Below are positions 40,115 to 63,477 of a stretch of DNA of 64,000 bases, piece after piece. This DNA comes from Burkholderiales bacterium (GTDB lineage: Bacteria > Pseudomonadota > Gammaproteobacteria > Burkholderiales > WYBJ01), in assembly GCA_020848435.1 (NCBI GenBank), contig JADLAC010000009.1:89765-153764 (forward strand), read 5' to 3'. The position numbers were made by a program, and so were the translations under genes. Position 1 is the stretch's first letter, and each line of letters begins with the position of its first letter. Below the pieces are notes generated by a model. That model made no database searches, was not told the origin of the DNA, and worked only from the letters and a program-made list of their open reading frames with translations.

Positions 40115-40125
40115 CTCCTCGACGC

Positions 40126-41520
40126 TCACGCCTGGAGCTCGCAGCGGAAATCCTCGAACTTGCCGCCGGCGGCACGCTCGATGGCATCGACCCGTCGCAG
40201 CTCCACGTCGAAGGCATAGCCGAGGTCGCGCTGCATTCCCTCGACCAGTGCGTCGCGCTGTGACGCTCCGATCGGGCTCGAGGTCACGATCAGAACCAGG
40301 ATGTCGGTCAGGCTGCGTTGAATGACCTGGCATTGCTCGACGCGTACCACTTCCGCGTCATGCAAGCAGCGGAACAACGGCCAGCGCGTTTCCCCAGAGG
40401 GCAGGCGCAACATGTTGCGCGCACGCCCCAGCACTCGCTTCAGGACCGCATGAGGACCGCCACGGGGGCAGGGTGCGTCGAGCTGCGCGTAATCACCCAA
40501 TTCGTAACGGATGAGGGGCATGGCGAAGTTGTGCAACACCGTCACTACGACGCGTCCGATCGCGCCCGGCGGACACGGCCGATCGCGCTGGTCGAGGACT
40601 TCCACCAGCACGGATTCGCTGCACACATGCAGGTGCTCATGCGCAGCACATTGCATCGCGATGGGCCCGGTTTCCACGGCGCTGTATTCGTCGATAACGG
40701 CAACGCCGAAGACCTGGCCGCACAGCGCGCGCACCGAGGGATCGAGCACTTCGGCGAAGCTGCGCAGCGCGCGCAATGACGGTATGGCGGTCGCCGTCTC
40801 GCGCAACCGGCGGGCGAGCGCCGCCAGGTTGCTCGGGTAGCTCAACAGATAAGCCGGTCGCTCGCGGGCGAGCCACTCGATCTGCTCACCGACGGTGGCC
40901 TCGATACTCAGTTGAACTGCCGGACCGCACGGATAGCCGGCTGCCCAGAGCGCCTCGCGCGCGCCCTCGGGCGGCGTGGCGTAACCCGGCGGCTGTTTCC
41001 TGATCGCGGCGACCTTGGCGGAAAGATCGATCCCGTGACGCAGATACTGGGCGAGGTAGTGCGCCTTTTGCGGGAGCGCCAAGAGCTCGGGCTGCAGCAC
41101 CTGAACGGGACGTCCGGTCGAACCCGATGAAGCCGCGACGCCCAGGCGGCCATGTTCGCGTGGAATTGCGTCGCTGCGCAGCTCGCGCGCCGCGTTCTGG
41201 AGGCTGCGACGCGTGAGTATCGGCAGGCGTTGAAACGATTCCATCGCCGGCGCCTTCTTCCAGCGGCTCGCGGCCTGGCGATAGTGGCGCCGGTACCAGG
41301 GCACGGTGCGCATCGCATGCTCGACGAGCGCTTCGACCTGTTGCAGTTGCAGCGCGAGCAGCTGCGAGGGCTGCAACCGTTCATCGCGCGCGAATTCCCG
41401 CAGCATGCTCAAGACCAGCGCGTCCGTCGTGCCGGGTATGGCGGGAAACGCGAGTCCCGGAATCGCGCAGGCCGGTACGTTGGTATCGAGGACCGGGGTG
41501 TCCAAGGCAGCGGCCGGCAC
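40126..41520 (-). CDS. PaaK/CapK-type adenylate-forming enzyme (paralogue 3 of 3)
   Basis: 464 aa with a GTG start. Motifs: VPWYRRHY, LPILTRRSL, SSGSTGRP, PLIRYELGD, GGKFEDF. It shares the N-terminal AIPG..(F/W)P.IPG motif with paralogue 2. Confidence 0.75.
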   Translation of the reverse strand: MPAAALDTPVLDTNVPACAIPGLAFPAIPGTTDALVLSMLREFARDERLQPSQLLALQLQQVEALVEHAMRTVPWYRRHYRQAASRWKKAPAMESFQRLPILTRRSLQNAARELRSDAIPREHGRLGVAASSGSTGRPVQVLQPELLALPQKAHYLAQYLRHGIDLSAKVAAIRKQPPGYATPPEGAREALWAAGYPCGPAVQLSIEATVGEQIEWLARERPAYLLSYPSNLAALARRLRETATAIPSLRALRSFAEVLDPSVRALCGQVFGVAVIDEYSAVETGPIAMQCAAHEHLHVCSESVLVEVLDQRDRPCPPGAIGRVVVTVLHNFAMPLIRYELGDYAQLDAPCPRGGPHAVLKRVLGRARNMLRLPSGETRWPLFRCLHDAEVVRVEQCQVIQRSLTDILVLIVTSSPIGASQRDALVEGMQRDLGYAFDVELRRVDAIERAAGGKFEDFRCELQA

Positions 41521-43774: not shown

Positions 43775-45208
43775 CTATGCCGCGTCGGCGGCGGTAAGGC
43801 GCACGCTGCGGTGCCGGCGCATCATGGCGCTCACCACGACAATGAGAAACAGCACGCCGCCGATGACCGCGATCAACCCGCCCGCGCCCATCACGCCCAT
43901 CGCGACGATCTGTTCGGTCGTACGCAGCGCCTGATCCGCGCCCGCGACCTTGCGCTGCACGCCGTAGCCTCCGGACCATACCAGGCCGACGATATGCAGC
44001 AATTGCCCGCCCCCGTATACCCAGGGCTGGACATGCGCGAGCCGCGCATTGACGGATCGAAACCCCAGCCGCGGCAAGAGCGCGTACGTCAGGCCCATGA
44101 GCGCCAGTGTCACCCCGACGATGCAACCGTGGTAATGGGCCGGAATCTTGACGTTGCTGCCTTGGATCATGAAGCCGATGATGCCGCCGGCGCCGAACAA
44201 GATGAGCGAGGCCACCAGCGCCGCCCGCATGGGGCGCGTATCCCGGCCCGGTGCGGGGGCGCGCAGCAGCGCCGCGAACACGGCAAGCGTGAAAGGAACG
44301 ATCGCGAGCCCTCCGCCGAAGCGCATCAGCCAGGTGAGCAGCCGATGGTGCTCCACCGAGGCGATGTCGTAGGCCAGGTAGATCACCGGGGTCAGGAACA
44401 CCGAGACCAGGGCGATCGCGAACAGCAGGATCGCTACTCGCGGCGTGAGCGGGACGCGTGCGCCCGCCTCCTCGGCGAGCCACAGCCACGCGACCAGCAT
44501 GAGCAGCGTGTAGGTGAATTGCATGACGTGACCGCCACCCCAGAAGAGCAGCTCGTAGAGCGCGCGCCCGTCCAATCCCCGCGGCAGCACGAGCCACGAC
44601 CAGGCGAAAGCGATCAGCGCGACCGCGAGCGAAACGGCCGCGCTGTTGAGCCCGAAGCGTAGCGCCCCGGCGCCATCGGGTCGGATACCGACGGCCGGGG
44701 CCGCCGTCATGCTGCGCAGGACCAGGCACAAGGTACCGATGCCGAACACGATCAGCCCGCTCAGGAACACCGGCTCGTCGAGCACGGGTATGTAGTTGGC
44801 CATGATCGGATTGCCGCTGCCCGCGAAGGGTGCGGCGGCCATGATCGCCGCACCGCACGCGGACAACGCCAAGGCGCACCAGCCAGCGCGACGCCAGCGC
44901 GGCCCGCTGTTGAGACTCCACAGCACGCCGCCGAAAGCCACGAACCACACCAGCACCGACAAGTCGACGTGCACCACCAGCGCGACGTGGAAGAAGTCCA
45001 CCAGGGGGAAGAAATCCTTCACGTACGGCGCGCGCGAAAGCACGAGGAGCACGGAGAACAGGCCCGATACGAGCAGCGAGACGACGGCGAGCGAGAGCCA
45101 GCCGACCGCGAGCGGACGCCGCGCCGTGTCCGACACGTCGAGCCGGTAGGCATAGGCGCGCGCGCCGCGGCTCGCAGCGCGCCGCGACAGGGCCGCGATC
45201 ATATTCAT
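43775..45208 (-). CDS. Divergent haem-copper oxidase superfamily catalytic subunit (subunit-I-like, 477 aa), no adjacent subunit II
   Basis: The start was trimmed to MNMIAAL at 45208 (ATGA overlap with the upstream gene). Roughly 12 hydrophobic segments. Candidate canonical His set: FFHVAL (helix II), FWGGGHVMQF (helix VI, no Tyr), VEHHRL (helix VII HH), AHYHG (helix X HxH). Confidence 0.6.
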   Translation of the reverse strand: MNMIAALSRRAASRGARAYAYRLDVSDTARRPLAVGWLSLAVVSLLVSGLFSVLLVLSRAPYVKDFFPLVDFFHVALVVHVDLSVLVWFVAFGGVLWSLNSGPRWRRAGWCALALSACGAAIMAAAPFAGSGNPIMANYIPVLDEPVFLSGLIVFGIGTLCLVLRSMTAAPAVGIRPDGAGALRFGLNSAAVSLAVALIAFAWSWLVLPRGLDGRALYELLFWGGGHVMQFTYTLLMLVAWLWLAEEAGARVPLTPRVAILLFAIALVSVFLTPVIYLAYDIASVEHHRLLTWLMRFGGGLAIVPFTLAVFAALLRAPAPGRDTRPMRAALVASLILFGAGGIIGFMIQGSNVKIPAHYHGCIVGVTLALMGLTYALLPRLGFRSVNARLAHVQPWVYGGGQLLHIVGLVWSGGYGVQRKVAGADQALRTTEQIVAMGVMGAGGLIAVIGGVLFLIVVVSAMMRRHRSVRLTAADAA

Positions 45209-45705
45209 CGGAACAGCACTCCTTCGACCTCGCGGTCGAAATCTATGGTCAATACCTGCCCGGCGCGCAAGCTTACGGTGCGCGCCACGACCTGCGGGCT
45301 CGTGTTCCGGCGCGCATCGTCGGCGACGCTCGCCTCGATCCGATGCGTTCCGGCGGCGAGGGGCAAGCGCCGGTAGAGGGTGGCCGCACCGTCGCGCGCC
45401 AAGCCGCGCGGCGGCAGGGTTTCGTCCACCATCAATTCGCCGTCCACGATCAGCCGCACGCGCACATCGGCACGTTCCCGCGGACAGGATTCGGCATGAC
45501 GCATGTTGGCCGGCAGGCGCGCCAGCTCCTCCGCCGACAGGCGGCGGCACGGCTTGAGGCGCGCACCGTCGAGCGTCATGCTGAGGCGAAGCAACGCGGT
45601 ATCCGGAGGCAGTTGCTGGTAGCTCGGCGCGACCGAGCAATACGCGAGCGCGATCCCGCACACGCCGTAACAGAGCAAGCGCCCGAGCATGCGCCGATCA
45701 AGCAT
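45205..45705 (-). CDS. Conserved hypothetical single-TM protein, paralogue of 47334-47837
   Basis: N-terminal TM helix. Motifs shared with the paralogue: LP.D.AL.R.S, EELA.LP.NMR, CPRER, DGAAT.YRR, IDFD. An alternative Met lies at 45690. Confidence 0.5.
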   Translation of the reverse strand: MLDRRMLGRLLCYGVCGIALAYCSVAPSYQQLPPDTALLRLSMTLDGARLKPCRRLSAEELARLPANMRHAESCPRERADVRVRLIVDGELMVDETLPPRGLARDGAATLYRRLPLAAGTHRIEASVADDARRNTSPQVVARTVSLRAGQVLTIDFDREVEGVLFR

Positions 45706-47326
45706 TGCCCAGTCTCCGCAGCCGCGGCCGATCGCCGCGCGCCTCGACGGCGCTCGTCTTGGCGCGCAGACTCGCCACCGCCTGCGCCAGATCGCGCTCC
45801 TCGCCCGCGCCCGCGAAGCTCAAAGCCCAGCGCGAGGGATCGACGCTCGTTCGCAGGTGCGGCTCCCTCTCGCCCGACAAGCGCCGCTCGATCCATTGCG
45901 GCCCGAGGCGGAATTCGCACTCTCCCGGATGGCAGGCGTTGACCACGACCCCGGCTGCACCGGCGCGCAATGCATATTCGACGAACGCCGGCGGCAGCAT
46001 GGCGATGCATAGCAGCGGCAGCGCGAGCACGCCCTCGGCGCGTACGCTGTCGAGCGCTGCCGCACGCTCGCAGCCGAACACGACGATCGCCGGACCGCGC
46101 TCGCCTGCGAGCGCACGCTCCAGCTCCCGGCGCAGATCGTCGACGGTTCGCCGCGGCATGTCGATGCCGCTCAGCAGCGCGTCCGTGCTGCGAAAAGGTG
46201 TGGATGAGGGACAAGCGCCCGCGCAGATACCGCAGCCGGCGCACGCGTCCGCGATCACCACGGGAAAACGTTGGCCGGCTCTCGCACCCGGGCGCGGCTT
46301 CATCGCGATCGCCGCATATGGACAGTCATCGGCGCAGCGCGCGCAGCCGTTGCAGTTGTCGAGATCGACCCGCGCGTGCTCGCGCGGCGCCGGTCTAGCA
46401 GCCAATGCCGGCATCGCACACAACAGCAAGGTCGCGCCGGCGGCGAAACTCCACGCGATTCCAGGCGATGTTTCATACTGGAGCGGATGAATGAAGAGGT
46501 AGAACCAGTCGAGCGCCAAGCCGGTTTGCAGCAGCGTGGGATCGGCCGGCGCATGACTGGCTGCCGGCGCCGCCACGGCGAGCGCGAGCAAGGTGAGCAG
46601 CACGCCCCACGCCAGCGAGCGCGGCGGCAGCGTGTGCACGTGACTGATGCGCTGGATGTGTATCCACATGCCGGCCAGCAGCAGCAAGGGAATGCCGATG
46701 TGCAGGAAGATGAGCAGGGAGAAGAAGCGGTCGTCGATCGGCTGGATGAAATTGCGTACGATCGCATCGCCGCCCAAGGGCAGCCAGTCGAGCCACTCCG
46801 CGGTCGCGGTGATCGAGAACAGAGCGAGCTGGTCCCAGACCAGCCAGTAGCCGCCGATCCCCGAGGCATACGCGAGCCAGATGAGCGGTACCCCGCTCAG
46901 CCAGGAGAACCAGCGAAAGCTCGCGAAGTGCCCGCGCAAGAGCTCGCGCCCGATGTGCAGCAGCATGATCGCCGCGAAAGCATCGGAGGCATAGCGGTGC
47001 AGGCTGCGCATGATTCCGCCGAGATACCATTGCTCGCTGCTCAGCTGCTCGACCGAGGCATAGGCGCCGGCTGCGCTGGTATCGAAGAACGCGTAGAGAT
47101 AGATCCCGGTCGCGGTCACGATCCAGAACAGATAGAACCCGAGGGCGCCGAGCTGGTGCCAGGGGTTGTGCTCGGGCGCGAACGCACGCTCGAGGCCGCG
47201 ACCGATCGCGGCCGCGATACGAACCCACGGTCGCGCTGCCGCGTTGCTCGCCACGCCCGTTGTCCTGAACCCCGACATGGCGCCAATGCTGACACGCGCC
47301 GCCGAGATCGCATTGACGCGGGTCAA
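45698..47326 (-). CDS. Fusion protein: dihaem cytochrome b (bc1/b6 N-terminal type) + 2x[4Fe-4S] ferredoxin + MvhD/FlpD-like domain
   Basis: Four His sit in TM context (SLHRYASD, MLLHIGRE, FLHIGIP, WIHIQR). Two Cys clusters: CNGCARCADDCP and CAGCGICAGACP. The C-terminus VVFGCERAA...LPLLCIAMLPPAFVEYALRAGAAGVVVNACHPGECEF is MvhD-like. The start is TTG at 47326 (AGGAG upstream) or ATG at 47278. Confidence 0.7.
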   Translation of the reverse strand: MTRVNAISAARVSIGAMSGFRTTGVASNAAARPWVRIAAAIGRGLERAFAPEHNPWHQLGALGFYLFWIVTATGIYLYAFFDTSAAGAYASVEQLSSEQWYLGGIMRSLHRYASDAFAAIMLLHIGRELLRGHFASFRWFSWLSGVPLIWLAYASGIGGYWLVWDQLALFSITATAEWLDWLPLGGDAIVRNFIQPIDDRFFSLLIFLHIGIPLLLLAGMWIHIQRISHVHTLPPRSLAWGVLLTLLALAVAAPAASHAPADPTLLQTGLALDWFYLFIHPLQYETSPGIAWSFAAGATLLLCAMPALAARPAPREHARVDLDNCNGCARCADDCPYAAIAMKPRPGARAGQRFPVVIADACAGCGICAGACPSSTPFRSTDALLSGIDMPRRTVDDLRRELERALAGERGPAIVVFGCERAAALDSVRAEGVLALPLLCIAMLPPAFVEYALRAGAAGVVVNACHPGECEFRLGPQWIERRLSGEREPHLRTSVDPSRWALSFAGAGEERDLAQAVASLRAKTSAVEARGDRPRLRRLGNA

Positions 47327-47333: not shown

Positions 47334-47837
47334 TCAGCTCCTGAAGCGGAAGCCGCCGCGGGCGTTGTCGAAGTCGATCAGCACGCTGCCCCCCGGGGGC
47401 AGGTCGAGGGTGGTCGTGGCGCGATGGTTGAAATCGCCGTGCGGGCGATCGCGCATGCGCACCGCGATCTCGTGGCGCCCCGTGGGCAGCTCGATGCGCC
47501 GGTAGACCGTGGCGGCGCCGTCGTGGTGCAATCCCGAGGGCGGCACGTCGAGGCTCAGCAAGAGCCTGCCGTCGAGCTCCACTTCGACCTTCAACGGCGA
47601 GCGCTCGCGCGGGCAATCGAGCTGCGAGCGCATATTGGGTGGGAGCTTGGCGAGCTCCTCGGGCGTGCGCTGGTGGCATTCGCGCAGGCGCTCGCCGGCA
47701 TGCGAGAACGATACGCGCATGAGCGCGCGGTCCTGCGGCAGGTGCGCAAATCGCGGTGCCGACGAGAAGTAGCCGAGGATCACCATCAAGGGCACGTAGA
47801 GCGCCAATTGCGCCAGAAAGCGCAGCACCCCGATCAT
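47334..47837 (-). CDS. Conserved hypothetical single-TM protein, paralogue of 45205-45705
   Basis: The start was trimmed to MIGVLRF at 47837 (ATGA overlap with the upstream stop). The shared motifs are the same as for 45205-45705. Confidence 0.5.
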   Translation of the reverse strand: MIGVLRFLAQLALYVPLMVILGYFSSAPRFAHLPQDRALMRVSFSHAGERLRECHQRTPEELAKLPPNMRSQLDCPRERSPLKVEVELDGRLLLSLDVPPSGLHHDGAATVYRRIELPTGRHEIAVRMRDRPHGDFNHRATTTLDLPPGGSVLIDFDNARGGFRFRS

Positions 47838-49774
47838 CGCCCGCCCCCGGGCTTCATGATTTCTGCCGCTCCCCCCGGCTTGTGCGCGGGCAGCAGGAAG
47901 GTATCGGAGAAGCAATCCTCTTGCGCGAGCCCGCGGGCAAGAAACGCGGGATGCGCCGCGGCCACCATGTCGACCGATCCGCAGGCATAGATCTGATGGC
48001 CGGCAAGATCCGGAAAGTCGGCCAGGATCGCCTCATGGACCAACCCGATGCGGCCGGTCCAATGGTCCTCCGGCGCCGGGTCCGACATCACCGGAATGAA
48101 CTTGAAATTTGCGTGCTCGCGCTCCCACTGGCGCGGCAGCTCGCCAAGGTACAGATCCTGCGGGCGGCGCACGCCCCAGTACAGCAGCATGTTGCGTTTG
48201 AGGCCGATATGCAGAGCGTGCTCGACCATGCTTTTCACGGGCGCGAAGCCAGTCGATCCGGCGACGAAGATGATCGGCTTGTCGCTGTCTTCGCGCAGGA
48301 AGAACGAGCCCAACGGCGCTTCGAATCGGATGGTATCGCCCACCTGCATATGGTCGAACACCCAGGGCGTGAACTTGCCGCCCGGCACCAGGCGAATCTG
48401 CAATTCGATCTCGCCTTGCACGTGCGGAGCGGTCGCGAAGGAAAAGCTGCGATGCTCGCCGTTCGGCAGCAGCACGTTGATGTACTGCCCGGCGTAGTAG
48501 TCGAGCTGCTCGCCGGGCCCGAGGGCGAGAAAGACCTGCATCACATCGGGGGCGAGGCGGTTCATGCGCGTGACGCGGGCGTTGTAGGTCCGTATCGGCC
48601 GCCCGCCGAGCGGCTCGGTCGGCTCGTACTCGACCTCGATGTCGCTCAACGCCGTCGCGCAGCACAGCAGCAGCTTGCCGGCGGCGCGCTCGGCCTCGCT
48701 GAGCGCGTCCTTCTGGTAGTTGCCCGGATCGATTTCGCCGTAAGTGAGGGTCGCTTTGCATTTGCCGCAGCCGCCGTTGCGGCACTCGAAGGGGAACGCG
48801 ATACCCTCGCGCAAGCCCGCGTCGAGGATGCTTTCGCCTTCGCGCACGCTGATGATGTGGTTGTCCGGGCGCACCAGCAGATGGAAGCCCTCCTTGGAGA
48901 CGCGCCGGCGCTTCGGCGGCAACCACGGCGCCAACAGGAACAGCGCGGTCGCACCGCCGACCAGCGCCCACACCTCACCCGGGCTCCAGCGATACAGCAG
49001 GGCATACACGGGCAGGTAGAACCAGTCGAAATCGATCACCGTCACGGCGGATGCGAGATCCGCCGGCGCCTGGCTCAGCGCGGGCTTGAGCAGCGACAGC
49101 ACCACCAGCGCGGCGCTCAACGTGGCGGCAATCGGCCAAGGCGGCGAGGTGCGCGCCTGCGGCACGCGCTGGGTATGCACCATCAGCAGCGCCAGCGCGG
49201 CGAGCGGGATGCCGATATGGATGAACGAGAGCAGCGAGAACAGCCGGTCGTTCACGTTCTCCGGAAAAATGAAGTTGCGCACCAGCGTACCGCCGAAGAC
49301 CGGGATCCAGTCGAACCATTCGGCCGTGGCGATCACCACGAACTGCGCCAGGCGGTCCCACGGCAGCATGTAACCGTTGATCCCCGCGGAGTAGATGAGC
49401 CAGAGCAGGACGACCCCGCTCACCCAGGAGAACCAACGGAAGGCGCGGTAACGGTCGAACACGAAATGCCGCGCCAGGTGCAAGAGCATGGTCAATACCA
49501 TGCCGTCGGAGGCATAGCGGTGCAGGCTGCGCAAGATGCCGCCGAAATACCATTGCCCGTGGGTGAGCTGCTCGACCGAGGCGTAGGCTTCTTCCACTCC
49601 GGTATCGAAGAAGATGTAAAGGTAGAGCCCGCTTCCCAGCACGATCCAGAACAGGAAGTAGCTGATCGGACCGAGGTAATAGAGCGGATTGAGGCGGTCG
49701 CCGAAAGCGAGGTTGAAGAAGCTCTCCACCCGCAGGAAAGCCCAGCGTCCGGCACGATGCACGAGTTTCAACAC
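47834..49774 (-). CDS. Fusion protein: dihaem cytochrome b (bc1/b6 N-terminal type) + plant-type [2Fe-2S] ferredoxin + FNR-like FAD/NAD(P)H reductase
   Basis: The cytochrome-b half is paralogous to 45698-47326 (SLHRYASD, MLLHLARH, FIHIGIP, MVHTQR). The ferredoxin motif is FECRNGGCGKCKA...LLCCA. The FNR module reads RSFSFA (FAD) ...IIFVAGSTGFAP (NAD(P)H) ...YACGS. GTG start. Confidence 0.75.
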   Translation of the reverse strand: MLKLVHRAGRWAFLRVESFFNLAFGDRLNPLYYLGPISYFLFWIVLGSGLYLYIFFDTGVEEAYASVEQLTHGQWYFGGILRSLHRYASDGMVLTMLLHLARHFVFDRYRAFRWFSWVSGVVLLWLIYSAGINGYMLPWDRLAQFVVIATAEWFDWIPVFGGTLVRNFIFPENVNDRLFSLLSFIHIGIPLAALALLMVHTQRVPQARTSPPWPIAATLSAALVVLSLLKPALSQAPADLASAVTVIDFDWFYLPVYALLYRWSPGEVWALVGGATALFLLAPWLPPKRRRVSKEGFHLLVRPDNHIISVREGESILDAGLREGIAFPFECRNGGCGKCKATLTYGEIDPGNYQKDALSEAERAAGKLLLCCATALSDIEVEYEPTEPLGGRPIRTYNARVTRMNRLAPDVMQVFLALGPGEQLDYYAGQYINVLLPNGEHRSFSFATAPHVQGEIELQIRLVPGGKFTPWVFDHMQVGDTIRFEAPLGSFFLREDSDKPIIFVAGSTGFAPVKSMVEHALHIGLKRNMLLYWGVRRPQDLYLGELPRQWEREHANFKFIPVMSDPAPEDHWTGRIGLVHEAILADFPDLAGHQIYACGSVDMVAAAHPAFLARGLAQEDCFSDTFLLPAHKPGGAAEIMKPGGGR

Positions 49775-49849
49775 GATAGGGAAGCGACCAGGTCGACGAC
49801 GATCAGCGGGCCGGCGACGCCCTGACGGGAGCCGCCGAGGTTCGGAAGC

Positions 49850-50692
49850 TCAGCCGCGGGAGCGGCGGCGCTGGCGCCGCCATTCGTAGATGAGACTGCC
49901 CGTTCCGGCAAGCACGATGCTCGCGCCGACCAGCAGCTCGATCACGACGGCGTAGTTCAAGCGATACCTGCCCGCGCTCGGATCATACACCGTGCAGAGC
50001 AGCCGGACACGTTCGAGCCAGTCGGCGAGCGCCGGAGACGCGCTGCGCTGCCCGGTGACGAGCTCCTTCAGCGGACCGACCAGCAAGGGCAGATCGAACG
50101 AATCACCATAGAGCTGACGATAGATGCGCCCCTCCGGATCCACGACCGTGAGCTGGAGCACGTGGTCGAAGCCCTTTGCCGTCTGCGCGTAGCTGAAGCC
50201 GAAATCACGCAACAGCGCATCGACGCGCCCGGCGTCCGGGCTCAGAAACGACCATCCCGGCAGATCCGCCCCGTGGCGCCGGGCGAAATCCTTCATTGCG
50301 ACCGGGTTATCGTGGGGAAGATTGAAGCCGATCGTGATGCTGTGGAAGCTGTCGGCGCCAAGCGTCTGCTGTGCCGAACGCAATGCCTTGACGAGGAATT
50401 GCGTAGTCGCGGGGCAGACTTCGTAGCAGCCGGTATAGACGAAGCTCACCACCAGCGGCTTGCCGCGGTATTGGCTCAGTCGAACGCGTTTGCCTTGGGC
50501 TTCGGTGAATTCGTAATCGGCCGGCGCGGTTCCGACGACACCCTGGCTCAGCGCCAGGGCTGCCTTCTGGTCGAGCGCTGCGCTGGATTGAGCGCGGGTG
50601 GTTTCGGCCAGCAGGACCAGGGTCACGACGAGCCCCACCGCGATGCCGATGCGGGTGGCGAGGCCGGCGCGCTTGCCACCGCGGAGCGTCAA
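49850..50692 (-). CDS. SCO1/SenC-family copper chaperone (thioredoxin fold) with an extra C-terminal TM segment
   Basis: CxxxC motif in FVYTGCYEVCP. N-terminal TM anchor. The TTG start overlaps the cyoE stop (TTGA). Confidence 0.8.
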   Translation of the reverse strand: MTLRGGKRAGLATRIGIAVGLVVTLVLLAETTRAQSSAALDQKAALALSQGVVGTAPADYEFTEAQGKRVRLSQYRGKPLVVSFVYTGCYEVCPATTQFLVKALRSAQQTLGADSFHSITIGFNLPHDNPVAMKDFARRHGADLPGWSFLSPDAGRVDALLRDFGFSYAQTAKGFDHVLQLTVVDPEGRIYRQLYGDSFDLPLLVGPLKELVTGQRSASPALADWLERVRLLCTVYDPSAGRYRLNYAVVIELLVGASIVLAGTGSLIYEWRRQRRRSRG

Positions 50693-51543
50693 TCGCGCAC
50701 TCCGGCGTCGATCAGCGCCGCGAACAGCAGCAGGGAAAGCTGGACCAGGGTCGCATGAAAATTCGCCATGGCGGTCGCGCGGTTCGGCGCGCGCACCAGC
50801 GCCACGCTCTTCACCAGCAGATAGGCGCCGCCGGCAACCGCGCCCACGAGATAAACCGCACCCAGACTATAGAACGCCGGCAGCAGCGAGGCCGCCACCA
50901 GCAGCACGCTATTCCAGAATATCACCCGAGCGCTGCGGCTCTCGCCCACCAACACGGGCAGCATGGGCACGCCGGCCGCCCGGTAATCGTCCTGAAAGGC
51001 GATGGCGAGGCTCCAGAAGTGCGGCGGCGTCCAGAGGAACAACACGAAGGCGAACGCGAGCGCTTCGGCCGTCAGCTCGACGCTCACGCTCGCCGCACCG
51101 GCCAACACCGCGAAGCTCCCCGCCAGGCCGCCGATGACGATATTGAGCCAGGTGCGCCGTTTCAGCCACACGGTGTAGACCACGGCGTAGAAGAATGCGC
51201 CGAGGAAAACGTACAGTGCCGCCAGCGGATTCACCGCGAGGGCGGCGCTGCCGACGGCAGCGACGATCATGAGGACAATCAGCGCGAGCCAGTGTCTGCC
51301 GTGGCGCAGGCTGCCGCTCACGAAAGGCCGCGCGCGAGTACGGCGCATGCGCGCGTCGAGGTCGCGCTCGGCGTATTGGTTGAACGCGCCCGCGGCCGCC
51401 GATGCCACCAGCACGGACAAGGCGAGGACCAGGCTTTGCCAAATCGTAGGACGCGGTCCGGGGGTGACCGCGATGCCGGTAACGGCGGTGAGCGCGATGA
51501 CGATCCCGATCCGCAGCTTGAAGAGATTCAGAAAGGTCTTCAT
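50689..51543 (-). CDS. cyoE: Protohaem IX farnesyltransferase (haem O synthase)
   Basis: 284-aa polytopic UbiA-family protein. NQYAERDLDARMRRTRARP and WTPPHFWSLA are characteristic of CyoE/CtaB. Confidence 0.9.
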   Translation of the reverse strand: MKTFLNLFKLRIGIVIALTAVTGIAVTPGPRPTIWQSLVLALSVLVASAAAGAFNQYAERDLDARMRRTRARPFVSGSLRHGRHWLALIVLMIVAAVGSAALAVNPLAALYVFLGAFFYAVVYTVWLKRRTWLNIVIGGLAGSFAVLAGAASVSVELTAEALAFAFVLFLWTPPHFWSLAIAFQDDYRAAGVPMLPVLVGESRSARVIFWNSVLLVAASLLPAFYSLGAVYLVGAVAGGAYLLVKSVALVRAPNRATAMANFHATLVQLSLLLFAALIDAGVRD

Positions 51544-51631: not shown

Positions 51632-53356
51632 TTAACTCAGCGGCCAGACCGTCGACAGGTACTTCCAGTTGACGAAGTAGTACAGGATGAAGGAGATCAG
51701 GAACACCATCGCGAGCACCAGCGTTCCCGGCGCCACGAAGCCGGCCATGCCCACGTTGGGATGATGCGCGGCGATCGCCGCCGCCACCGGCGCCGGTGCC
51801 GGTGCTATGCCTTCCGCGGCGCGCACGTGCTTGAAGTCCGGCACATCGACGCGCGGCGCGAAGAACACCGATCCCACGGTGATCAAGAGATAGATCGCTC
51901 CGCCCACTACCGCCGCCAAGCCGGCCAGCGCCGTCAACGCCATCATCAGCCAGGCCGCACCGGGGAACTCGTAGGGCATCGCGTTACCGGCGAAGCTGAT
52001 GTCCCAGTGCCGGCGCGGTACGCCCAGGGTGCCGGCGCCCATCATGAACAGGGCGAAAGCGCTCATCCCCAAGCCGAACAGATAAGGTTGCCATTGCGCG
52101 AGCTTGGGAAACAGCATCTTGCGCCGGAACAGCACCGGTATGAGGAAATACGTGAGCGACATGAAGGCAAGGGTGGTGCCGACCACCACCGTCGCGTGGA
52201 AGTGCCCCGGCACGTAGATGGTGTTGTGGATGATGAGGTTGAGCTGCTCGGTGCCCATCATCACGCCGGAAATCCCGCCGAGGAAGCCGAAGCCGATGAG
52301 GGAGATGAACATGCCGGCGAACACGGGATTGCCCCACGGCGCCTTGCGCAGCCACTCGAACAGGCCGCGGTTGTAGCCCTTTTCCCGTTGTGCGACCTCG
52401 ATGGCGCCCGGCACGGTGAGCCCGTGCACCATGCTCGCCAGCACCGCCAGGTACATCGCGTAGCTGGTGTTGAAGATCTTCCAGTTCGAGGTCAGACCCG
52501 GATCAGCGAGCAGATGGTGGGCGGAGGCGAGCTGCAAGAACAGGATGTAGAGCAGGAACGCGCCGCGGCTCACCTTCTCGCTCATGGGCTTCGCGCCGAA
52601 CACGATCGCGGCGATCGCATACCAGACCGAGACGTGGGCCGCGACGTTGATCTGTTGCGAGGAGTGACCGAAGCCCCACCACACGGTGCGATACATCAGC
52701 GAATCGATGTGTTCGACCAGGCCGACCGACCAGAGGAAGGTCGGGATCAGGATGATGGCCCCCGAGGCGATCGTGAACACCGCGATGATGCACGCCGTCA
52801 CGGCGCCGAAGGTGACCAGCGGTATGGAACCGTTGTAGGTGCGCTCGGCCTTTGCCACCACCAGGGTACCGAGGAAGACGAAGCAGCCGATGAGCGCACC
52901 GACCGCGAACAGGATGAGCCCGAGATAGAACGCCGGATGGGCGCCCATCGGCGCGTAGGAGGTGAACATCACGCTGGACGTGCCGCTGAAGATCGCGTAG
53001 TTGTTCATGATCGCGCCCAGGATCATGAGCCAGAAGCCGACCCAGGCGAGCCCCGGCGTTGCAAGCCGGCAGCGCAGCAGGGTGCTGGAGGCGAAGTACA
53101 GGATCGCGATCTCGAAGAAGATGATCCACAGCACCAGCATGTCGACGCCGTGCGCCGTGAGGAAGAGATAGAACCAATCGGGCGAGAGCAGGTGGACGGC
53201 TTGCCAGCGGGTGAGGGTCACGCCGAGGGCCAGGATGCCGCCGACGAGCAGCGACACCACGGCCGCGACCGCGTGCGCCTTCATCAGCTTCTCCGCCGGC
53301 TCGTGGAACAGCAGTCCCGTGCTGGGACAGGTCCGGAACATTCGATTGACTGCCAT
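51632..53356 (-). CDS. Haem-copper oxidase subunit I (divergent, B-/NOR-related; helix-VI Tyr absent)
   Basis: 574 aa. All six canonical His are recognisable: LTAHGV, WWGFGHSSQQ, ASAHHL, PGHFHATV. The usual GHPEVY is replaced by GHSSQQ. Confidence 0.85.
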   Translation of the reverse strand: MAVNRMFRTCPSTGLLFHEPAEKLMKAHAVAAVVSLLVGGILALGVTLTRWQAVHLLSPDWFYLFLTAHGVDMLVLWIIFFEIAILYFASSTLLRCRLATPGLAWVGFWLMILGAIMNNYAIFSGTSSVMFTSYAPMGAHPAFYLGLILFAVGALIGCFVFLGTLVVAKAERTYNGSIPLVTFGAVTACIIAVFTIASGAIILIPTFLWSVGLVEHIDSLMYRTVWWGFGHSSQQINVAAHVSVWYAIAAIVFGAKPMSEKVSRGAFLLYILFLQLASAHHLLADPGLTSNWKIFNTSYAMYLAVLASMVHGLTVPGAIEVAQREKGYNRGLFEWLRKAPWGNPVFAGMFISLIGFGFLGGISGVMMGTEQLNLIIHNTIYVPGHFHATVVVGTTLAFMSLTYFLIPVLFRRKMLFPKLAQWQPYLFGLGMSAFALFMMGAGTLGVPRRHWDISFAGNAMPYEFPGAAWLMMALTALAGLAAVVGGAIYLLITVGSVFFAPRVDVPDFKHVRAAEGIAPAPAPVAAAIAAHHPNVGMAGFVAPGTLVLAMVFLISFILYYFVNWKYLSTVWPLS

Positions 53357-53374
53357 GACTTATCCCCCCTTGTT

Positions 53375-53914
53375 CTACTTTACGTAGAGCTTGCTCGACA
53401 TCGTGTGATGATTGATGCCGCAGTACTCGTTACAGATGATCGAATAGGTCCCGGCGCGAGTGGGTTGCACGGTAAGGACGTGGTCGTAGCCCGGATGCAC
53501 CTGGATGTTGATGTTCTCGGGCTGCAGCGAGAATCCGTGCAGCCAATCCATCGACATGAGATGGATGCGGTAGCTCTTGCCGGCCTCGAGCTCGAGGATC
53601 GGCCACCACGACCACAGGCGCGCTACCAGGTACACGTCGCTGCCGGCGGGCGGCGCCACCACGGGAATCTTCTGGTCGGTCTCGGTGCGCACGGTGAACT
53701 TGTCCACCATATCCTGCGCCTTCTTCATGTAGACCTCGGGCGTGGTGCGGTACGCCTCGTTGGCCAGGTTCTGTTTTCCGAACACATGCCAGTACGGCAT
53801 CATGAAGAACATGATCAGGCACCAGATCAGCGCGATGACGACCCAGGTGCCCTCCACGCGATCCAGCGGTTGCTTCCACCAGACGCGATCCTCGGGCGGT
53901 AGTATGGCGCTCAT
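53375..53914 (-). CDS. Haem-copper oxidase subunit II with a CuA cupredoxin domain
   Basis: One N-terminal TM helix. The CuA motif is WLHGFS...CNEYCGINHHTM (H...C-x-E-x-C-G-x-x-H-x-x-M). Confidence 0.75.
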   Translation of the reverse strand: MSAILPPEDRVWWKQPLDRVEGTWVVIALIWCLIMFFMMPYWHVFGKQNLANEAYRTTPEVYMKKAQDMVDKFTVRTETDQKIPVVAPPAGSDVYLVARLWSWWPILELEAGKSYRIHLMSMDWLHGFSLQPENINIQVHPGYDHVLTVQPTRAGTYSIICNEYCGINHHTMSSKLYVK

Positions 53915-53947
53915 GCTCCCCTCTCCTTCGACGGTTTGTTCGGCGGT

Positions 53948-54127
53948 TTACTTGGCGACCGGGATGTTGACGATTTCCATCACGCCCCAGATCACATAAA
54001 GCACCGTGGGCAGGGCGACCCCGAGAAACAGCAACAGGAAGGGATTGTCGAGAAGCTGCTGCATCACAGGCACCGGCTCCTCGGGCGGCAGGTCGTTCAT
54101 CGGGTCTACACGGGTCTCAGTCGTCAT
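53948..54127 (-). CDS. Small membrane protein (59 aa), first gene of the oxidase array (not in the ORF track, below 60 aa)
   Basis: Manual translation: MTTETRVDPMNDLPPEEPVPVMQQLLDNPFLLLFLGVALPTVLYVIWGVMEIVNIPVAK. GGAGGGAG sits immediately upstream. It ends 33 nt before the subunit II start. Confidence 0.4.
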   Translation of the reverse strand: MTTETRVDPMNDLPPEEPVPVMQQLLDNPFLLLFLGVALPTVLYVIWGVMEIVNIPVAK

Positions 54128-54218
54128 GGCTCCCTCCGAGGCTGTCTGCCGGCCGCTACCGGCCGGCGGGTCTATGTGGAACTGCCGCGAAAGTTACCCT
54201 CGGACGGCGGCGCGGAAC

Positions 54219-54232
54219 TTGACTTTAATCAA
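54219..54232. promoter_or_regulatory. FNR/DNR/NnrR-type box TTGAC-TTTA-ATCAA in the divergent region between the oxidase array and ctaA
   Basis: Direct reading. It lies about 92 nt from the start at 54127 and about 94 nt from the start at 54326. Confidence 0.55.
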
Positions 54233-54325
54233 GCTTTCGCCGCGCTGGGTCGATCGCGCTTGCAGCGAGCTGTAGCGCGCCGTTCGAGGCGGTATAGTTG
54301 CGTTCCAACCAGGGAAGCAGGACCG

Positions 54326-55357
54326 ATGGATCGAAGCACACGTATACGAGTGGCGGCATGGCTGTTCGCGTGCTGCGTGCTGCTATTCACGATGATCGTG
54401 ATCGGTGGCATCACGCGTCTCACCCGCTCCGGACTTTCCATCGTCGAATGGCAGCCGATCGCCGGTGCGCTGCCGCCTTTGAACGAAGCGCAGTGGCTCG
54501 AGACCTTCGAGAAGTACCGGCAGACCCCCGAGTACAAGCAGGTCAACTTCGGCATGAGCCTCGCCGAGTTCAAAGGCATCTTCTGGTGGGAATACATCCA
54601 TCGCCTGCTCGGGCGTCTCATCGGCCTGGTCTTTTTCATTCCCTACGCCTGGTTCCTGCTGCGCAAGCGGCTCGACCGCGACAGCGCCTGGAAGCTCGGC
54701 CTGGTGTTCGTTCTCGGCGCGATCCAAGGGGCGATGGGCTGGTACATGGTCAAGAGTGGCCTGGTCGACGATCCGCGCGTGAGTCACTATCGGCTCAGCG
54801 CGCATCTCGGCCTCGCCTTCGCGATCTTCGCGGCCATGTTCTGGATCGCTCTCGACATGCTGAAGCCCAGGCTCGTACCGGTCTCCGAACCCGCACGGCG
54901 GCTCGGGCGCGTCGCCCTCACCACGGCGCTACTCGTGTTCGTCATGATCCTGAGCGGCGGCCTGGTCGCCGGCATTCGCGCGGGCTACGCGTACAACACC
55001 TTTCCGCTCATGAACGGCCATTGGATCCCGCCCGAGATCCTGCTGATCGAGCCGTGGTACCTCAACTTCTTCAACAATATGGCGACGGTCCAGTTCGATC
55101 ATCGGACGCTCGCCTGGATCCTGCTCGTGCTCATCGCGGGGATGTGGATCGCGAGCCGCTCGCCCGCGCTTCCCGCGCGCGCGCGTTTCGCAGCGCATTT
55201 CCTGCTGCTCGCCATCGCGTTGCAGTTCTCACTCGGCGTGGCGGCCCTGTTGCTGCGCGTGCCGGTGCCGCTCGGCGCTGCGCACCAGGGCGGCGCCGTG
55301 CTGGTGCTGGCGGCGCTCCTTTGGTTCGCGCACGAGCTGCGCCGTCCGGAGCATTAG
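54326..55357 (+). CDS. ctaA: Haem A synthase (COX15/CtaA family)
   Basis: The start was trimmed to MDRSTRIR at 54326. IGGITRLTRSGLSIVEWQP...W..F.KY...PEY and WEYIHRLLGR are typical of COX15. Confidence 0.85.
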   Translation: MDRSTRIRVAAWLFACCVLLFTMIVIGGITRLTRSGLSIVEWQPIAGALPPLNEAQWLETFEKYRQTPEYKQVNFGMSLAEFKGIFWWEYIHRLLGRLIGLVFFIPYAWFLLRKRLDRDSAWKLGLVFVLGAIQGAMGWYMVKSGLVDDPRVSHYRLSAHLGLAFAIFAAMFWIALDMLKPRLVPVSEPARRLGRVALTTALLVFVMILSGGLVAGIRAGYAYNTFPLMNGHWIPPEILLIEPWYLNFFNNMATVQFDHRTLAWILLVLIAGMWIASRSPALPARARFAAHFLLLAIALQFSLGVAALLLRVPVPLGAAHQGGAVLVLAALLWFAHELRRPEH

Positions 55358-55361
55358 ATCG

Positions 55362-56327
55362 ATGCACGCCACCTCGGCCCCGCGCCGGTTGCTCGCGCGC
55401 GCGGCGTTGCTCGGCTGCGTTCTCATGGCCGTCATCGTCATCTCGAGCGCATTCCTGCGCCTGACCAGCATCGGCATCGGTTGCGCGGATTGGCCGCAAT
55501 GCTATGGCCGCCTCGCGAGCGCGAGCGCGGCCGCCGACCCCCTGCCCCCGGCCGCGGTACGAGTCGCGCGCCTGTTGCATCGGTTCGCCGCGATGCTGAC
55601 AGGGGTGCTCGTGCTGTTCATGCTCATCGTCTCCATCACGCGCGCCGGGCGTACGCGTGCCAACTTCGGCGCCGCGCTCGCCTTGTGTCTGGCGACGATT
55701 CTGCTGGCGGCGATCGGACGCAGCAGCGCCGGGACGCTCGTGCCCTTGATCGGTGTCGTCAATCTCGTCGGCGGCTTCACGATGCTGCTGCTGTTCTGGC
55801 TGCTCTGGTCTACGAACGCCAGTGCGAGCGGCTCGACGCCGGCCCCTGTGCAGGTGCGGCTCGCGGCCTTCGCTCTGCTCGCGGCCTTGCTCGCGCAAGT
55901 CGCCGCGGGCGCATTGTCCAGCGTCACGTATGGCGTCACGACCTGTAGCGCTCCGTTGACGTGCGCGACCGATTCGCAGGGTAGCTTGGAGGCGTTGCGC
56001 AGCCTGACCCCGAGCGTGCCGCTCCAGGTCGAGGACGAGCGCGTGATTGCACCCAAGGGTGCAGCCGAGCTGCAACTGCTGCACCGTTATTCGGGTCTCG
56101 CGCTTGGCGCGATCCTCATCGCTCTCGGCGCGTGGCTGCTGTGGGTGAAGCGGTTGCGCGCGCTCGCCGTGGCGCTCGTTGCGGCGGCCGCCGCCGAGCT
56201 GCTGCTCGGCCTGGCGATGGTGTCGGGCCCTCTGCCGTTGTCCGCGGCGCTCGCGCACAATGCGCTCGCAGCGGTTCTGCTGCTCCTGCTTGCTTTCCTC
56301 GCGCTGCGCCGCAGCCGCGGCGATTGA
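55362..56327 (+). CDS. Second CtaA/COX15-like polytopic membrane protein (Cys-pair type)
   Basis: SSAFLRLTSIGIGCADWPQCYG and LLHRFAAML resemble the CtaA N-terminal half. HRYSGL and LAHNALA resemble the second half. Confidence 0.6.
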   Translation: MHATSAPRRLLARAALLGCVLMAVIVISSAFLRLTSIGIGCADWPQCYGRLASASAAADPLPPAAVRVARLLHRFAAMLTGVLVLFMLIVSITRAGRTRANFGAALALCLATILLAAIGRSSAGTLVPLIGVVNLVGGFTMLLLFWLLWSTNASASGSTPAPVQVRLAAFALLAALLAQVAAGALSSVTYGVTTCSAPLTCATDSQGSLEALRSLTPSVPLQVEDERVIAPKGAAELQLLHRYSGLALGAILIALGAWLLWVKRLRALAVALVAAAAAELLLGLAMVSGPLPLSAALAHNALAAVLLLLLAFLALRRSRGD

Positions 56328-56337
56328 TCGACATCAA
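56324..56337. promoter_or_regulatory. Perfect FNR-consensus box TTGAT-CGAC-ATCAA
   Basis: Direct reading. It overlaps the stop codon of the 55362-56327 gene and lies about 155 nt upstream of the DUF2249 ORF. Confidence 0.5.
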
Positions 56338-56490
56338 GGATCGGGCGCGTTCGAGGCCAGCAAAATGGCTCGCACGTCGTCGAGCCGCGTGCTCGATGCC
56401 TCGGTCAATGCGCCGCATCGGAGCTCAAACCGCCGCGGCCCCGATAACAGCCCGCGAGCCTTCGGCCCCGCGGGCGATAGGCAGGTGCCC

Positions 56491-56718
56491 GTGAACGGAA
56501 GCGAAGTTGTGGTGGTCGACGCTCGCTGGCTGCAGCATCCCGAGCCCATGGAAAAAGTGCTCGCGGCGCTATCGGCGCTCACTCCCGGCCAGCGCCTGCT
56601 ATTCAAGATCCACCGCGAGCCCTATCCGCTGTACCGCATGCTCGAAAAGAACAACTACGGTTGGAAGGTGGCCAAGCAGGACGACGGCACCTTCGAGATC
56701 ACGATCTGGGAGCAGTAG
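56491..56718 (+). CDS. DUF2249-family small protein
   Basis: VVVDARWLQHPEPMEKVLAALSALTPGQRLLFKIHREPYPLYRML matches the DUF2249 pattern (lD.R.L..P.P...il.al..L.pG..L........P.PL). The GTG start at 56491 is assumed. Confidence 0.5.
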   Translation: MNGSEVVVVDARWLQHPEPMEKVLAALSALTPGQRLLFKIHREPYPLYRMLEKNNYGWKVAKQDDGTFEITIWEQ

Positions 56719-56838
56719 CGCCGGCAACGCGAAGCCAGTCGGTGGGGCGCTGCGAGCGCCGGGGTGCAATCCCGCGAGCTCGATGGCTTCGGCCCGGGCA
56801 GGGTTCGATTCGGCGTGATCGAATCGCCCTGATGCGCA

Positions 56839-57711: not shown

Positions 57712-57776
57712 TCCACCTCCGATCGGAATCGGCTCCGAGCTCGCGCGTATTTGAACCCACGACGCGCGTACGGAAT

Positions 57777-57790
57777 TTGACGAAGGTCAA
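57777..57790. promoter_or_regulatory. FNR/DNR/NnrR-type palindromic box TTGAC-GAAG-GTCAA upstream of nirS copy 1
   Basis: Direct reading. The box centre lies about 81 nt upstream of the nirS ATG at 57865. Confidence 0.6.
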
Positions 57791-57864
57791 TGGGATACGG
57801 CATGCGCTGCAGCATCCTAAGCGCCGATGAAAGTTTCGTTGATAGCGTCACAGAGGAGATGGCC

Positions 57865-59487: not shown

Positions 59488-59497
59488 CGGCACATGC

Positions 59498-59526
59498 GCG
59501 GCGCCTGCGGGCGCCGCTCTTTTTTG
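59498..59526 (+). terminator. Rho-independent terminator after nirS copy 1
   Basis: The 8-bp stem GCGGCGCC/GGCGCCGC with loop TGCG is followed by TCTTTTTTG. Confidence 0.6.

Positions 59527-61155: not shown

Positions 61156-63477
<2,322 letters not shown>

Follow-up and report, generated by a model that had tools for sequence, protein, structure and literature searches.

A single gene that appears to join a bc-type cytochrome b to a ferredoxin and a flavoreductase raises three questions: whether the joining is genuine, in which direction electrons would cross the membrane, and which partner would exchange them. The gene (47834..49774, minus strand) lies in a stretch of 64,000 nucleotides from a Burkholderiales bacterium (GenBank assembly GCA_020848435.1, contig JADLAC010000009.1, positions 89,765 to 153,764), hereafter called the window. 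Open reading frame (ORF) analysis, translation, and Pfam showed that it encodes 646 amino acids with cytochrome b, [2Fe-2S] ferredoxin, FAD, and NAD(P)H domains. Our data indicate that the predicted product is a real, conserved, and uncharacterised membrane flavocytochrome that combines known modules in one polypeptide. We tentatively favour, at somewhat less than an even chance, the electron path NAD(P)H→FAD→[2Fe-2S]→haem bn→haem bp, which would feed a haem-copper partner.

The cytochrome b-reductase fusion is genuine and conserved

The ORF is read from 49774 to 47834, beginning with GTG at 49774 and ending with TGA at 47836-47834. A preliminary description of the window had placed a single 646-residue ORF at these positions, which our analysis confirmed and assigned to the minus strand. 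Its GC content at third codon positions (GC3) is 0.86, as is typical of the adjoining genes; an equally long ORF on the plus strand (47756..49825, GC3 0.63) was rejected as a high-GC shadow. Four Pfam domains cover the fusion, all above their own gathering scores: Cytochrome_B (PF00033; amino acids 26-201, E 2.5e-21, 76.8 bits against a gathering score of 27.2), Fer2 (PF00111; 303-375, E 4.8e-14, 52.5 bits against 21), FAD_binding_6 (PF00970; 399-491, E 7.9e-15), and NAD_binding_1 (PF00175; 503-607, E 3.8e-20).

The same fusion, whose occurrence elsewhere the preliminary description had proposed as a check, recurs in many genomes. P0001, an NCBI protein from a metagenome-assembled genome (MAG) of a Burkholderiales bacterium, is 100% identical to it. 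A search of 5.8 billion proteins returned more than 120 proteins of 640-650 amino acids with the same domain set at 69-86% identity, and a scan of species-representative genomes added 14 further full-length copies at 55-71% identity with the junction in frame. Clustering at 50% identity left one representative of the full-length architecture (P0121), indicating that the full-length fusion proteins form a tight family. In the family alignment, the four haem-ligating His and the four cluster-ligating Cys residues were invariant in 135 of 135 members; the FNR motifs were conserved, as was the linker between the membrane and reductase halves.

A missed stop codon or frameshift at the domain junction (~48.9 kb), suspected earlier near 48.95 kb, is excluded because the homologues and the species-representative copies keep the junction in frame, together with the length and the domains. 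That a sequencing or assembly error joined separate cytochrome b and reductase genes is practically inconceivable in view of more than 130 independent full-length homologues with the same junction and length. The uniform coding GC3, the conserved linker, and the detection of an orthologue by proteomics in a preprint described below also counter such an artefact.

The membrane half is a truncated bc-type cytochrome b

Residues 26-210 (49145..49699; all coordinates within the fusion are on the minus strand) form a b6-like four-helix bundle, as judged by alignment to cytochrome b6 (6rqf_I), with E 1.3e-21 for the single sequence and E 6e-33 for a family profile of 19 diverse membrane domains. Two further transmembrane (TM) helices (211-290; 48905..49144) are homologous to helices E and F of cytochrome b and b6f subunit IV. 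Here, profile positions 214-286 match subunit IV residues 43-116 (E 2e-4), mitochondrial cytochrome b aligns with the profile to about residue 310, and the AlphaFold2 (AF2) model has helices at 213-229 and 265-284. Hydropathy and AF2 secondary structure give six TM helices in all; the membrane part corresponds to b6 plus the first two helices of subunit IV, the chain being truncated after helix F compared with cytochrome b. A PPKRRR linker follows the sixth helix. The N terminus of bc-family cytochromes b lies on the n-side; because of this orientation and the six TM helices, we infer that the chain leaves the sixth helix through the linker into the cytoplasm, where the reductase half would reside.

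The preliminary description had recognised a four-His cytochrome b of the bc1/b6 type and left the ligands to a proper alignment. Besides the PF00033 match, this alignment placed H85, H99, H186, and H200 on H86, H100, H187, and H202 of cytochrome b6. H85 (49520-49522) would pair with H186 (49217-49219) at the p-side haem and H99 (49478-49480) with H200 (49175-49177) at the n-side haem, an assignment of pairs to haems that follows b6 numbering. The two His pairs on helices B and D have the spacing of 13 residues expected of a bc-complex cytochrome b that ligates two b haems. The protein is predicted to hold two bis-His b haems, one near each membrane face, and to retain a Qo-like pocket on the outer (p) side.

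The pocket is marked by an FDWF motif (249-252; 49019..49030), the positional equivalent of the Qo-site PEWY. The residue-level register (PAD...lDWfyl against EPAD...PEWYLY) sets FDWF on PEWY of subunit IV, with D250 in the place of the Qo glutamate. The ef-loop motif of a Qo site is recognisable, with Phe substituted for Pro and with Asp as the acidic residue. D250, W251, and F252 are invariant across all fusion types of this cytochrome b subfamily, as is PWD in the cd-loop. The cysteine for haem cn is absent, b6 Cys35 aligning with Tyr33 in a YLGP sequence that lacks CxGG. Also absent is the Qi-ligand His of bc1, position H200+5 being Pro205 in the conserved motif H-x-Q-R-V-P; we take the Qi-site ligands to be bc1 His201, Ser205, and Asp228 in bovine numbering. 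No gene for a Rieske protein, cytochrome c1/f, or another c-type cytochrome was found in the operon or in homologous operons. Compared with cytochromes b6f and bc1, the fusion therefore keeps a homologous membrane domain with four equivalent His, helices E and F, and the Qo motif of the ef-loop, but it differs in these losses, in the FDWF sequence, in ending after helix F, and in its covalently joined reductase.

The reductase half is related to several families and a member of none

The plant-type [2Fe-2S] ferredoxin domain (297-383; 48626..48886) was delimited by Pfam Fer2 and by alignment to the Fer2 domains of GcoB and BenC. The CxxxxCxxC...C motif noticed in the preliminary description corresponds to the invariant ligands C331, C336, and C339 (48758-48784) and C371 (48662-48664), in the pattern C331-x4-C336-x2-C339...C371. 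Next come an FAD-binding β-barrel with RSFSFA and GGKFT (395-491; 48302..48592), assigned by Pfam FAD_binding_6, conserved motifs, and a Foldseek match to Fre (TMt 0.91), and an NAD(P)H-binding Rossmann domain with VAGSTGFAP and YACGS (500-623; 47906..48277), assigned by Pfam NAD_binding_1 and AF2. By AF2 secondary structure and pLDDT, the C-terminal tail (625-646) is disordered. The FNR module had been called complete on the strength of RSFSFA, GGKFT, FVAGSTGFAP, and YACGS, all of which are present, and the FNR-type FAD, NAD, and CG motifs (RSFSFA, GGKFT, AGSTGFAP, YACGS) are conserved. They do not discriminate a preference for NADH from one for NADPH.

Among solved structures, the best relatives are GcoB (E 1.4e-50, 34% identity) and BenC (4.4e-36), with T4moF, Fre, CarAd, and NqrF as others, and the order Fer2-FAD-NAD is that of BenC, GcoB, T4moF, MmoC, and NqrF. 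An initial comparison with phthalate dioxygenase reductase (PDR) or Fre needs correcting with regard to PDR. PDR reached just E 1.3e-11, and its FNR-then-Fer2 order is not matched. All NCBIfam scores fell below the equivalog cut-offs (BenC NF040810, 193 against 430; Fre NF005963, 187 against 230; MmoC, 187 against 500; NqrF TIGR01941, 109 against 295). These data suggest that the reductase half is related to the BenC, Fre, MmoC, and NqrF families and is a member of none.

The oxygenase reductases BenC, GcoB, T4moF, and MmoC share domain order and motifs with the fusion, but they are soluble and pass electrons to oxygenases, and no oxygenase is encoded near the fusion. NqrF of Na+-NQR is a same-family, membrane-tethered [2Fe-2S]/FAD/NADH module that feeds a membrane complex; it differs in having one anchoring helix and no haems. 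No solved structure covering the whole chain was found, the Foldseek search against the PDB having matched the reductase half only. The AF2 model of the whole fusion has a mean pLDDT of 77 and a pTM of 0.51.

In NOX/DUOX/FRE flavocytochromes b558, six TM helices carry a stack of two bis-His b haems, and a cytoplasmic NAD(P)H/FAD domain of the FNR superfamily at the C terminus serves outward electron transfer. The fusion shares this overall design, but its membrane domain is non-homologous, it has an extra [2Fe-2S] domain inserted, and its electrons probably go to a partner enzyme or quinone instead of O2 or Fe(III). Pfam gave no matches to the ferric-reductase TM domain, FAD_binding_8, or NAD_binding_6 at E ≤ 0.01. 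The earlier statement that the two are built from unrelated parts is consequently right for the membrane domain, which lacks a ferric-reductase match, and wrong for the FAD/NAD module, which in NOX belongs to the FNR superfamily as well. As far as the sequence goes, the fusion is an analogue of NOX/FRE only; a NOX-like function in NAD(P)H-driven transmembrane electron export is plausible and is the reading that we favour.

The fusion gene lies in an eNOR cluster

Eight tightly spaced genes on the minus strand encode a CuA subunit II, a haem-copper subunit I, CtaB, SCO1, the fusion, a 167-residue protein, a second cytochrome b with Fer4 and MvhD domains, and a COX1-like protein. Subunit II (53375..53914; 179 amino acids, Pfam COX2) carries a complete CuA site (H126, C161, E163, C165, H169, M172). 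Subunit I (51632..53356; 574 amino acids) aligns with T. thermophilus ba3 (E 3e-51) as a B-family-derived haem-copper enzyme with all six canonical His (H69, H231, H280/281, H385/387). Where ba3 has GHPIVY, it has GHSSQQ, with Gln at the position of the cross-linked Tyr, and GHSSQQ was found in all 18 related loci that include the subunit I gene. Gln at this site is diagnostic of eNOR (PMC8756737, Table A4). Because Gln replaces the cross-linked Tyr, the canonical His are kept, and subunit II is of the CuA type, the genes at 51632-53914 are predicted to encode eNOR, a haem-copper NO reductase. NO reductase activity without O2 reductase activity has been shown for the R. marinus eNOR alone (PMC11214002). 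Between these genes and the fusion lie those of the haem O synthase CtaB (50689..51543, minus strand; NCBIfam TIGR01473, 259.8 bits against a cut-off of 210.3) and a SCO1/SenC copper chaperone (49850..50692, minus strand; Pfam).

Immediately downstream of the fusion, a small membrane protein (47334..47837, minus strand; 167 amino acids from the ATG at 47837, listed as a 193-residue ORF) is a conserved neighbour whose ATG overlaps the TGA of the fusion as ATGA, which points to translational coupling. It consists of one TM helix and a domain of ~140 amino acids with invariant C80 and C101, and it has no Pfam or NCBIfam match. In the cultured Elongatibacter sediminis (47% identity, E 5e-39) and in a second locus (L014; related loci are numbered with L), it is fused to the C terminus of a cytochrome b-Fer4-FlpD protein. 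Such fusions measure 687-691 amino acids (L018 9989-12052) and explain the representatives of ~690 amino acids (P0132, P0164, P0169, P0175, P0199). The fusion in E. sediminis suggests that the small protein is a physical partner of these cytochromes b.

The next gene (45698..47326, minus strand; a 542-residue ORF with Pfam Cytochrome_B, Fer4, and FlpD) encodes a paralogue of the same cytochrome b subfamily with two [4Fe-4S] clusters and an MvhD/FlpD-like domain, without an NAD(P) site. Since bc-type cytochromes b are dimeric, we speculate that the two paralogues may form a heterodimer. The last gene (43775..45661, minus strand; Pfam COX1, E 6e-17) encodes a divergent haem-copper-oxidase-like protein of ~477 amino acids from the probable start M152 at 45208, in line with the 475 amino acids called in L022. 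The ligands of both the low-spin and the high-spin haem (H231; H509/H511) are conserved, as is a single CuB/FeB His (H378). The HH pair of helix VII is not retained, neither the PDB nor NCBIfam gave a match, and no dedicated subunit II accompanies the protein. It resembles a dihaem derivative of an oxidase, and it may be either the 'eNOR scaffold protein' of the preprint described below or a member of an unrecognised dihaem family of haem-copper oxidases.

On the other side of the cluster, two tandem haem A synthase (CtaA) paralogues are divergently transcribed (53936..56327, plus strand; Pfam COX15-CtaA, E 7e-115 and 4e-23), the first with a probable start at 54326. The N-terminal ORF extensions of this gene (53936-54325) and of the COX1-like gene (45209-45661) are rich in Arg, Ala, and Gly and lack conservation among homologues; they probably reflect GC-rich sequence that stays open ahead of the true starts (54326 and 45208) and is not translated.

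These ctaA genes raise the possibility of a role of the fusion in cofactor maturation, in which it would pass NAD(P)H electrons to the outer-face haem site of CtaA as a bacterial, membrane-spanning counterpart of mitochondrial Arh1-Yah1-Cox15, needed as eNOR uses haem a. Two CtaA paralogues and CtaB in one cluster agree with such a role, as do the modified haem a of eNOR and the frequent occurrence of CtaA in eNOR operons (PMC11214002), and yeast Cox15 needs ferredoxin and ferredoxin reductase (PMC7140478, section 3.3.2). Nevertheless, we regard it as very improbable: in L007, L012/F. straubiae, and L011, no CtaA gene adjoins the fusion, L018 has CtaA with only the Fer4-MvhD paralogue, and haem a is made in most bacteria with no protein of this kind. 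The fusion had seemed to correlate with an adjacent CtaA through an artefact of tblastn sensitivity; Pfam found the CtaA in L018 that tblastn had missed.

Family distribution and conserved partners

The species-representative scan found the fusion in MAGs of Burkholderiales, Casimicrobiaceae, and Alcaligenaceae and in Dokdonella, Thermomonas, other Lysobacterales, and Ca. Ferrigenium bremense. The cluster is conserved across 23 loci, with a varying order of the last four genes. The fusion was accompanied by the COX1-like protein in all 15 loci having enough flank, and nearly always by the Fer4-MvhD cytochrome b and the small membrane protein. The Fer4-MvhD cytochrome b is the commoner accessory of eNOR clusters and occurs without the fusion in a gammaproteobacterial clade (L013-L019). 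In L011 and L001, the fusion, the small protein, the Fer4-MvhD cytochrome b, and the COX1-like protein form a four-gene module without adjacent eNOR genes, which in L011 adjoins Usp, hemerythrin, and HemN. Supposed third cytochrome b variants in L002 and L011 proved to be ordinary Fer4-FlpD paralogues.

These partners bear on the possibility that the fusion is a stand-alone NAD(P)H:quinone oxidoreductase, its cytochrome b being the anchor and quinone-reducing site of an NqrF-like dehydrogenase that feeds the general quinone pool, with a merely regulatory link to eNOR. The reductase half is indeed NqrF-like, a quinone-site motif is kept, dihaem cytochromes b are known as anchors of dehydrogenases (PMC5600118, section 9), and the module can stand apart from eNOR genes, as in L011 and L001. 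We consider this function quite unlikely, given the strict co-occurrence with the COX1-like protein, the near-constant position inside eNOR operons, and the translational coupling to a small membrane protein. Moreover, the kept quinone site is on the p-side, where reducing quinone would waste membrane potential, and complex I or NDH-2, neither seen in the window, would be expected for the job.

An operon like that of the window has been described for Ferrigenium straubiae in a preprint (bioRxiv 10.64898/2026.01.22.701106, May 2026, section 6.5.2), with eNOR II, eNOR I, haem O synthase, sco1, the fusion, and a second cytochrome b-[Fe-S] protein. Its authors assigned cytochrome b, [Fe-S], FAD-binding, and NADH-binding domains to the orthologue (IMG 2878407319), which they detected by proteomics in culture KS and put forward as a quinol:NAD+ oxidoreductase that might form a supercomplex with eNOR. 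They called these genes unusual and suggested them as Ferrigenium markers. The syntenic copy in Ca. Ferrigenium bremense BP06 (L012) is 55% identical to ours over 643 residues. The family spans all the lineages listed above, so the idea of a marker for denitrifiers of the Ferrigenium type that oxidise Fe(II) is too narrow.

Several loci have additional genes in or near the module. Hemerythrin-domain genes recur by the cytochrome b/COX1-like module in unrelated genomes (L011 13638-14225, L018 12049-12465, L023 18056-18520), which is consistent with an NO or low-O2 regulon. Two Peptidase_U32 genes lie between sco1 and the fusion in L004 (7289-9275), at the place taken by ctaB in other loci, and the same gap is found in L020 and L021. 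The Peptidase_U32 family includes the O2-independent hydroxylases UbiU/UbiV, and these genes could bear on haem a or quinone making without O2. In L022, two toxin-antitoxin pairs (VapB/PIN and MazE/PemK; 14611-16331) separate the cytochrome b genes from the COX1-like gene, which can therefore be transcribed separately.

L023, a JGI 3300026518 contig, contains an 827-residue ORF (P0152) that occupies the corresponding place in the operon and appears to link this type of cytochrome b to a CysJ-type NADPH diflavin module; NnrS, a CRP/FNR regulator, hemerythrin, and DUF2249 follow. Within L023 3695-5506 and 9861-12484, a 950-bp direct repeat with 97.6% nucleotide identity duplicates the cytochrome b part of the Fer4-FlpD gene in front of the diflavin reductase, which gives rise to this ORF. 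P0152 is either a real recent fusion or an in-frame remnant, and the diflavin part may be a stand-alone gene.

Direction of electron flow and the haem-copper partner

From the anatomy of the fusion follows an internal wire NAD(P)(H)–FAD–[2Fe-2S]–n-side haem–p-side haem–Qo-like pocket, whereas the direction and the external partner do not follow from it. In the reading that we favour, cytoplasmic NAD(P)H would reduce FAD, and single electrons would then cross the membrane through [2Fe-2S], the n-side haem, and the p-side haem. At the Qo-like site, they would be passed, directly or via a bound quinone, to an adjacent partner of the haem-copper type, either eNOR through CuA or the dihaem COX1-like protein. 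NO reduction would in this way draw its electrons from NAD(P)H independently of bc1, a design that resembles the NAD(P)H-driven NO detoxifiers Hmp and NorVW.

NAD(P)H is favoured as the donor because all characterised relatives of the reductase module (GcoB, BenC, T4moF, CarAd, Fre, NqrF, flavohaemoglobin) oxidise NAD(P)H, and because most hosts bear the names of heterotroph-type lineages, as does the metabolism encoded in the window point to a heterotroph. As the carriers are mostly named as members of heterotroph-type genera and orders (Thermomonas, Dokdonella, Lysobacterales, Casimicrobiaceae, Alcaligenaceae), a reverse flow that makes NADH is not generally needed. The joining of a diflavin module to cytochrome b in P0152 is a weak pointer to the same direction. 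The COX1-like protein is a candidate partner in view of its constant co-occurrence with the fusion and of the modules that lack adjacent eNOR genes.

A number of points weigh against this reading. For every family member, we infer both direction and acceptor. Direct donation from the p-side haem of bc complexes to an outside protein is not known; the transfer would require either a bound quinone or a partner cofactor lying very near. With the pTM of 0.51, the inter-domain arrangement in the AF2 model is not confident, and the proximity of [2Fe-2S] to the n-side haem is an assumption. P0152 is a singleton among the 5.8 billion proteins; its flavodoxin domain begins at an internal Met, and the nearest relatives of the diflavin part are ordinary cysJ genes beside cysI. 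Outward electron export dissipates membrane potential. An eNOR with CuA can be served by ordinary periplasmic donors, and many eNOR operons are without these cytochromes b (bioRxiv 10.64898/2026.01.22.701106). Finally, the invariant Qo-like motif is most naturally a quinol-oxidising site, which speaks for the opposite direction.

In that opposite direction, the fusion would work without a Rieske protein, as a quinol oxidase that bifurcates electrons and generates NAD(P)H. Of the two electrons from quinol at the Qo-like site, one would go to a nearby high-potential acceptor, the CuA of eNOR, pulled by NO reduction, and the other would run from the p-side haem to the n-side haem, [2Fe-2S], FAD, and NAD(P)+. 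This is the quinol:NAD+ oxidoreductase or supercomplex idea of the Ferrigenium preprint, and it parallels the anammox Rieske/cytochrome b proposals. FDWF, which corresponds to PEWY and includes an acidic residue, does not vary across the subfamily, and neither does the cd-loop PWD; haem cn and the canonical Qi ligand are missing, and a cytoplasmic redox module stands at the exit for low-potential electrons. Among the carriers are Fe(II)-oxidising autotrophs (Ca. Ferrigenium, L012), which have to synthesise NADH uphill, the proteome detection accompanies the published proposal (10.64898/2026.01.22.701106, section 6.5.2), and a precedent exists in clade G, whose short cytochromes b are found together with FeS subunits that bind NAD(P) (PMC5600118, section 9). 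On the other hand, neither a Rieske protein nor any other evident mobile acceptor of high potential is encoded in the operon, the majority of carriers bear names of heterotroph-type lineages, the characterised relatives of the reductase module all oxidise NAD(P)H, and the commoner paralogue is without any NAD(P) site. By our own estimate, a path from ubiquinone (~+90 mV) and CuA (~+250 mV) to −320 mV against the membrane potential is thermodynamically marginal. We therefore judge bifurcation unlikely, though deserving serious attention. Also unlikely, and slightly more so, is the extended form in which the fusion would be the core of a Rieske-less bc-type bifurcating machine, with NO reduction by eNOR or the COX1-like protein as the high-potential branch, the fused [2Fe-2S]-FAD module as the low-potential branch that yields NAD(P)H, and the Fer4-MvhD cytochrome b as a second low-potential outlet. 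If true, NO respiration would be directly coupled to the making of reducing power.

Denitrification island and regulation

Downstream of ctaA, the window continues into a denitrification island (55362-64000) with the second CtaA paralogue, DUF2249, a NirE-like methylase, nirS (57790-59487), nirT/napC (59549-60124), a second cd1-type gene (61513-63477), and a cytochrome c; the genes from DUF2249 to cytochrome c lie downstream of ctaA. A pattern search found FNR/DNR-type boxes at 54219, 56324, 61612, and 63592, four in the window against 0.51 expected. The first (TTGACTTTAATCAA, 54219..54232, strand not assigned) is in the divergent promoter region, and the other three fall in the nir cluster. 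Nothing above chance came from a promoter and terminator scan.

The region has the gene content of the denitrification island of a nirS denitrifier. A context of NO and denitrification for the fusion is suggested by nirS, nirT, the NirE-like gene, the FNR/DNR boxes, and DUF2249, together with hemerythrin and NnrS in related loci. We regard the predicted eNOR operon in a nirS denitrifier and the paralogous second cytochrome b fusion as the decisive context, which was not in the preliminary description.

Elsewhere in the window, a 920-residue protein (37571-40333, minus strand) has a lantibiotic-dehydratase N-terminal domain, and the ORF beside it matches AMP-binding weakly (E 4.8e-06), its 26.0 bits falling short of the gathering cut-off of 29.9 bits. 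This region is possibly a small cluster for a ribosomally synthesised and post-translationally modified peptide, unrelated to the fusion.

Relation to known systems and significance

The family is already present in databases under generic names, and an orthologue was flagged in the 2026 preprint. The nearest characterised designs include FNR bound to b6f (PMC5600118, section 9) and the Rieske/cytochrome b complexes of the anammox and clade-G types, in which short cytochromes b go with a large FeS oxidoreductase subunit that binds NAD(P) (PMC5600118, section 9, reviewing Kartal 2011/2013 and de Almeida 2016; PMC12954380). The latter likewise combine a bc-type cytochrome b with a cytoplasmic NAD(P)-linked FeS flavoprotein in a proposed link between the oxidation of quinol and NAD(P)H. 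Their reductase is a separate subunit of another family, and a Rieske protein is present, whereas the fusion is one polypeptide of the BenC type with no Rieske protein.

The question that this family addresses is whether electrons can pass between NAD(P)(H) and machinery of the Rieske/cytochrome b type, an exchange that has been proposed for the anammox complexes. With a Qo motif kept and the Qi site swapped for an attached NAD(P)-linked flavoprotein, the bc-type cytochrome b described here offers a compact test case in a single polypeptide. The COX1-like protein and the Fer4-MvhD cytochrome b are further uncharacterised components of an eNOR accessory module. The family is common in Burkholderiales and Lysobacterales of groundwater, soil, and sludge, and eNOR is a widespread family of N2O-producing enzymes (PMC11214002). 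In either direction of electron flow, the fusion would add a new electron route to eNOR.

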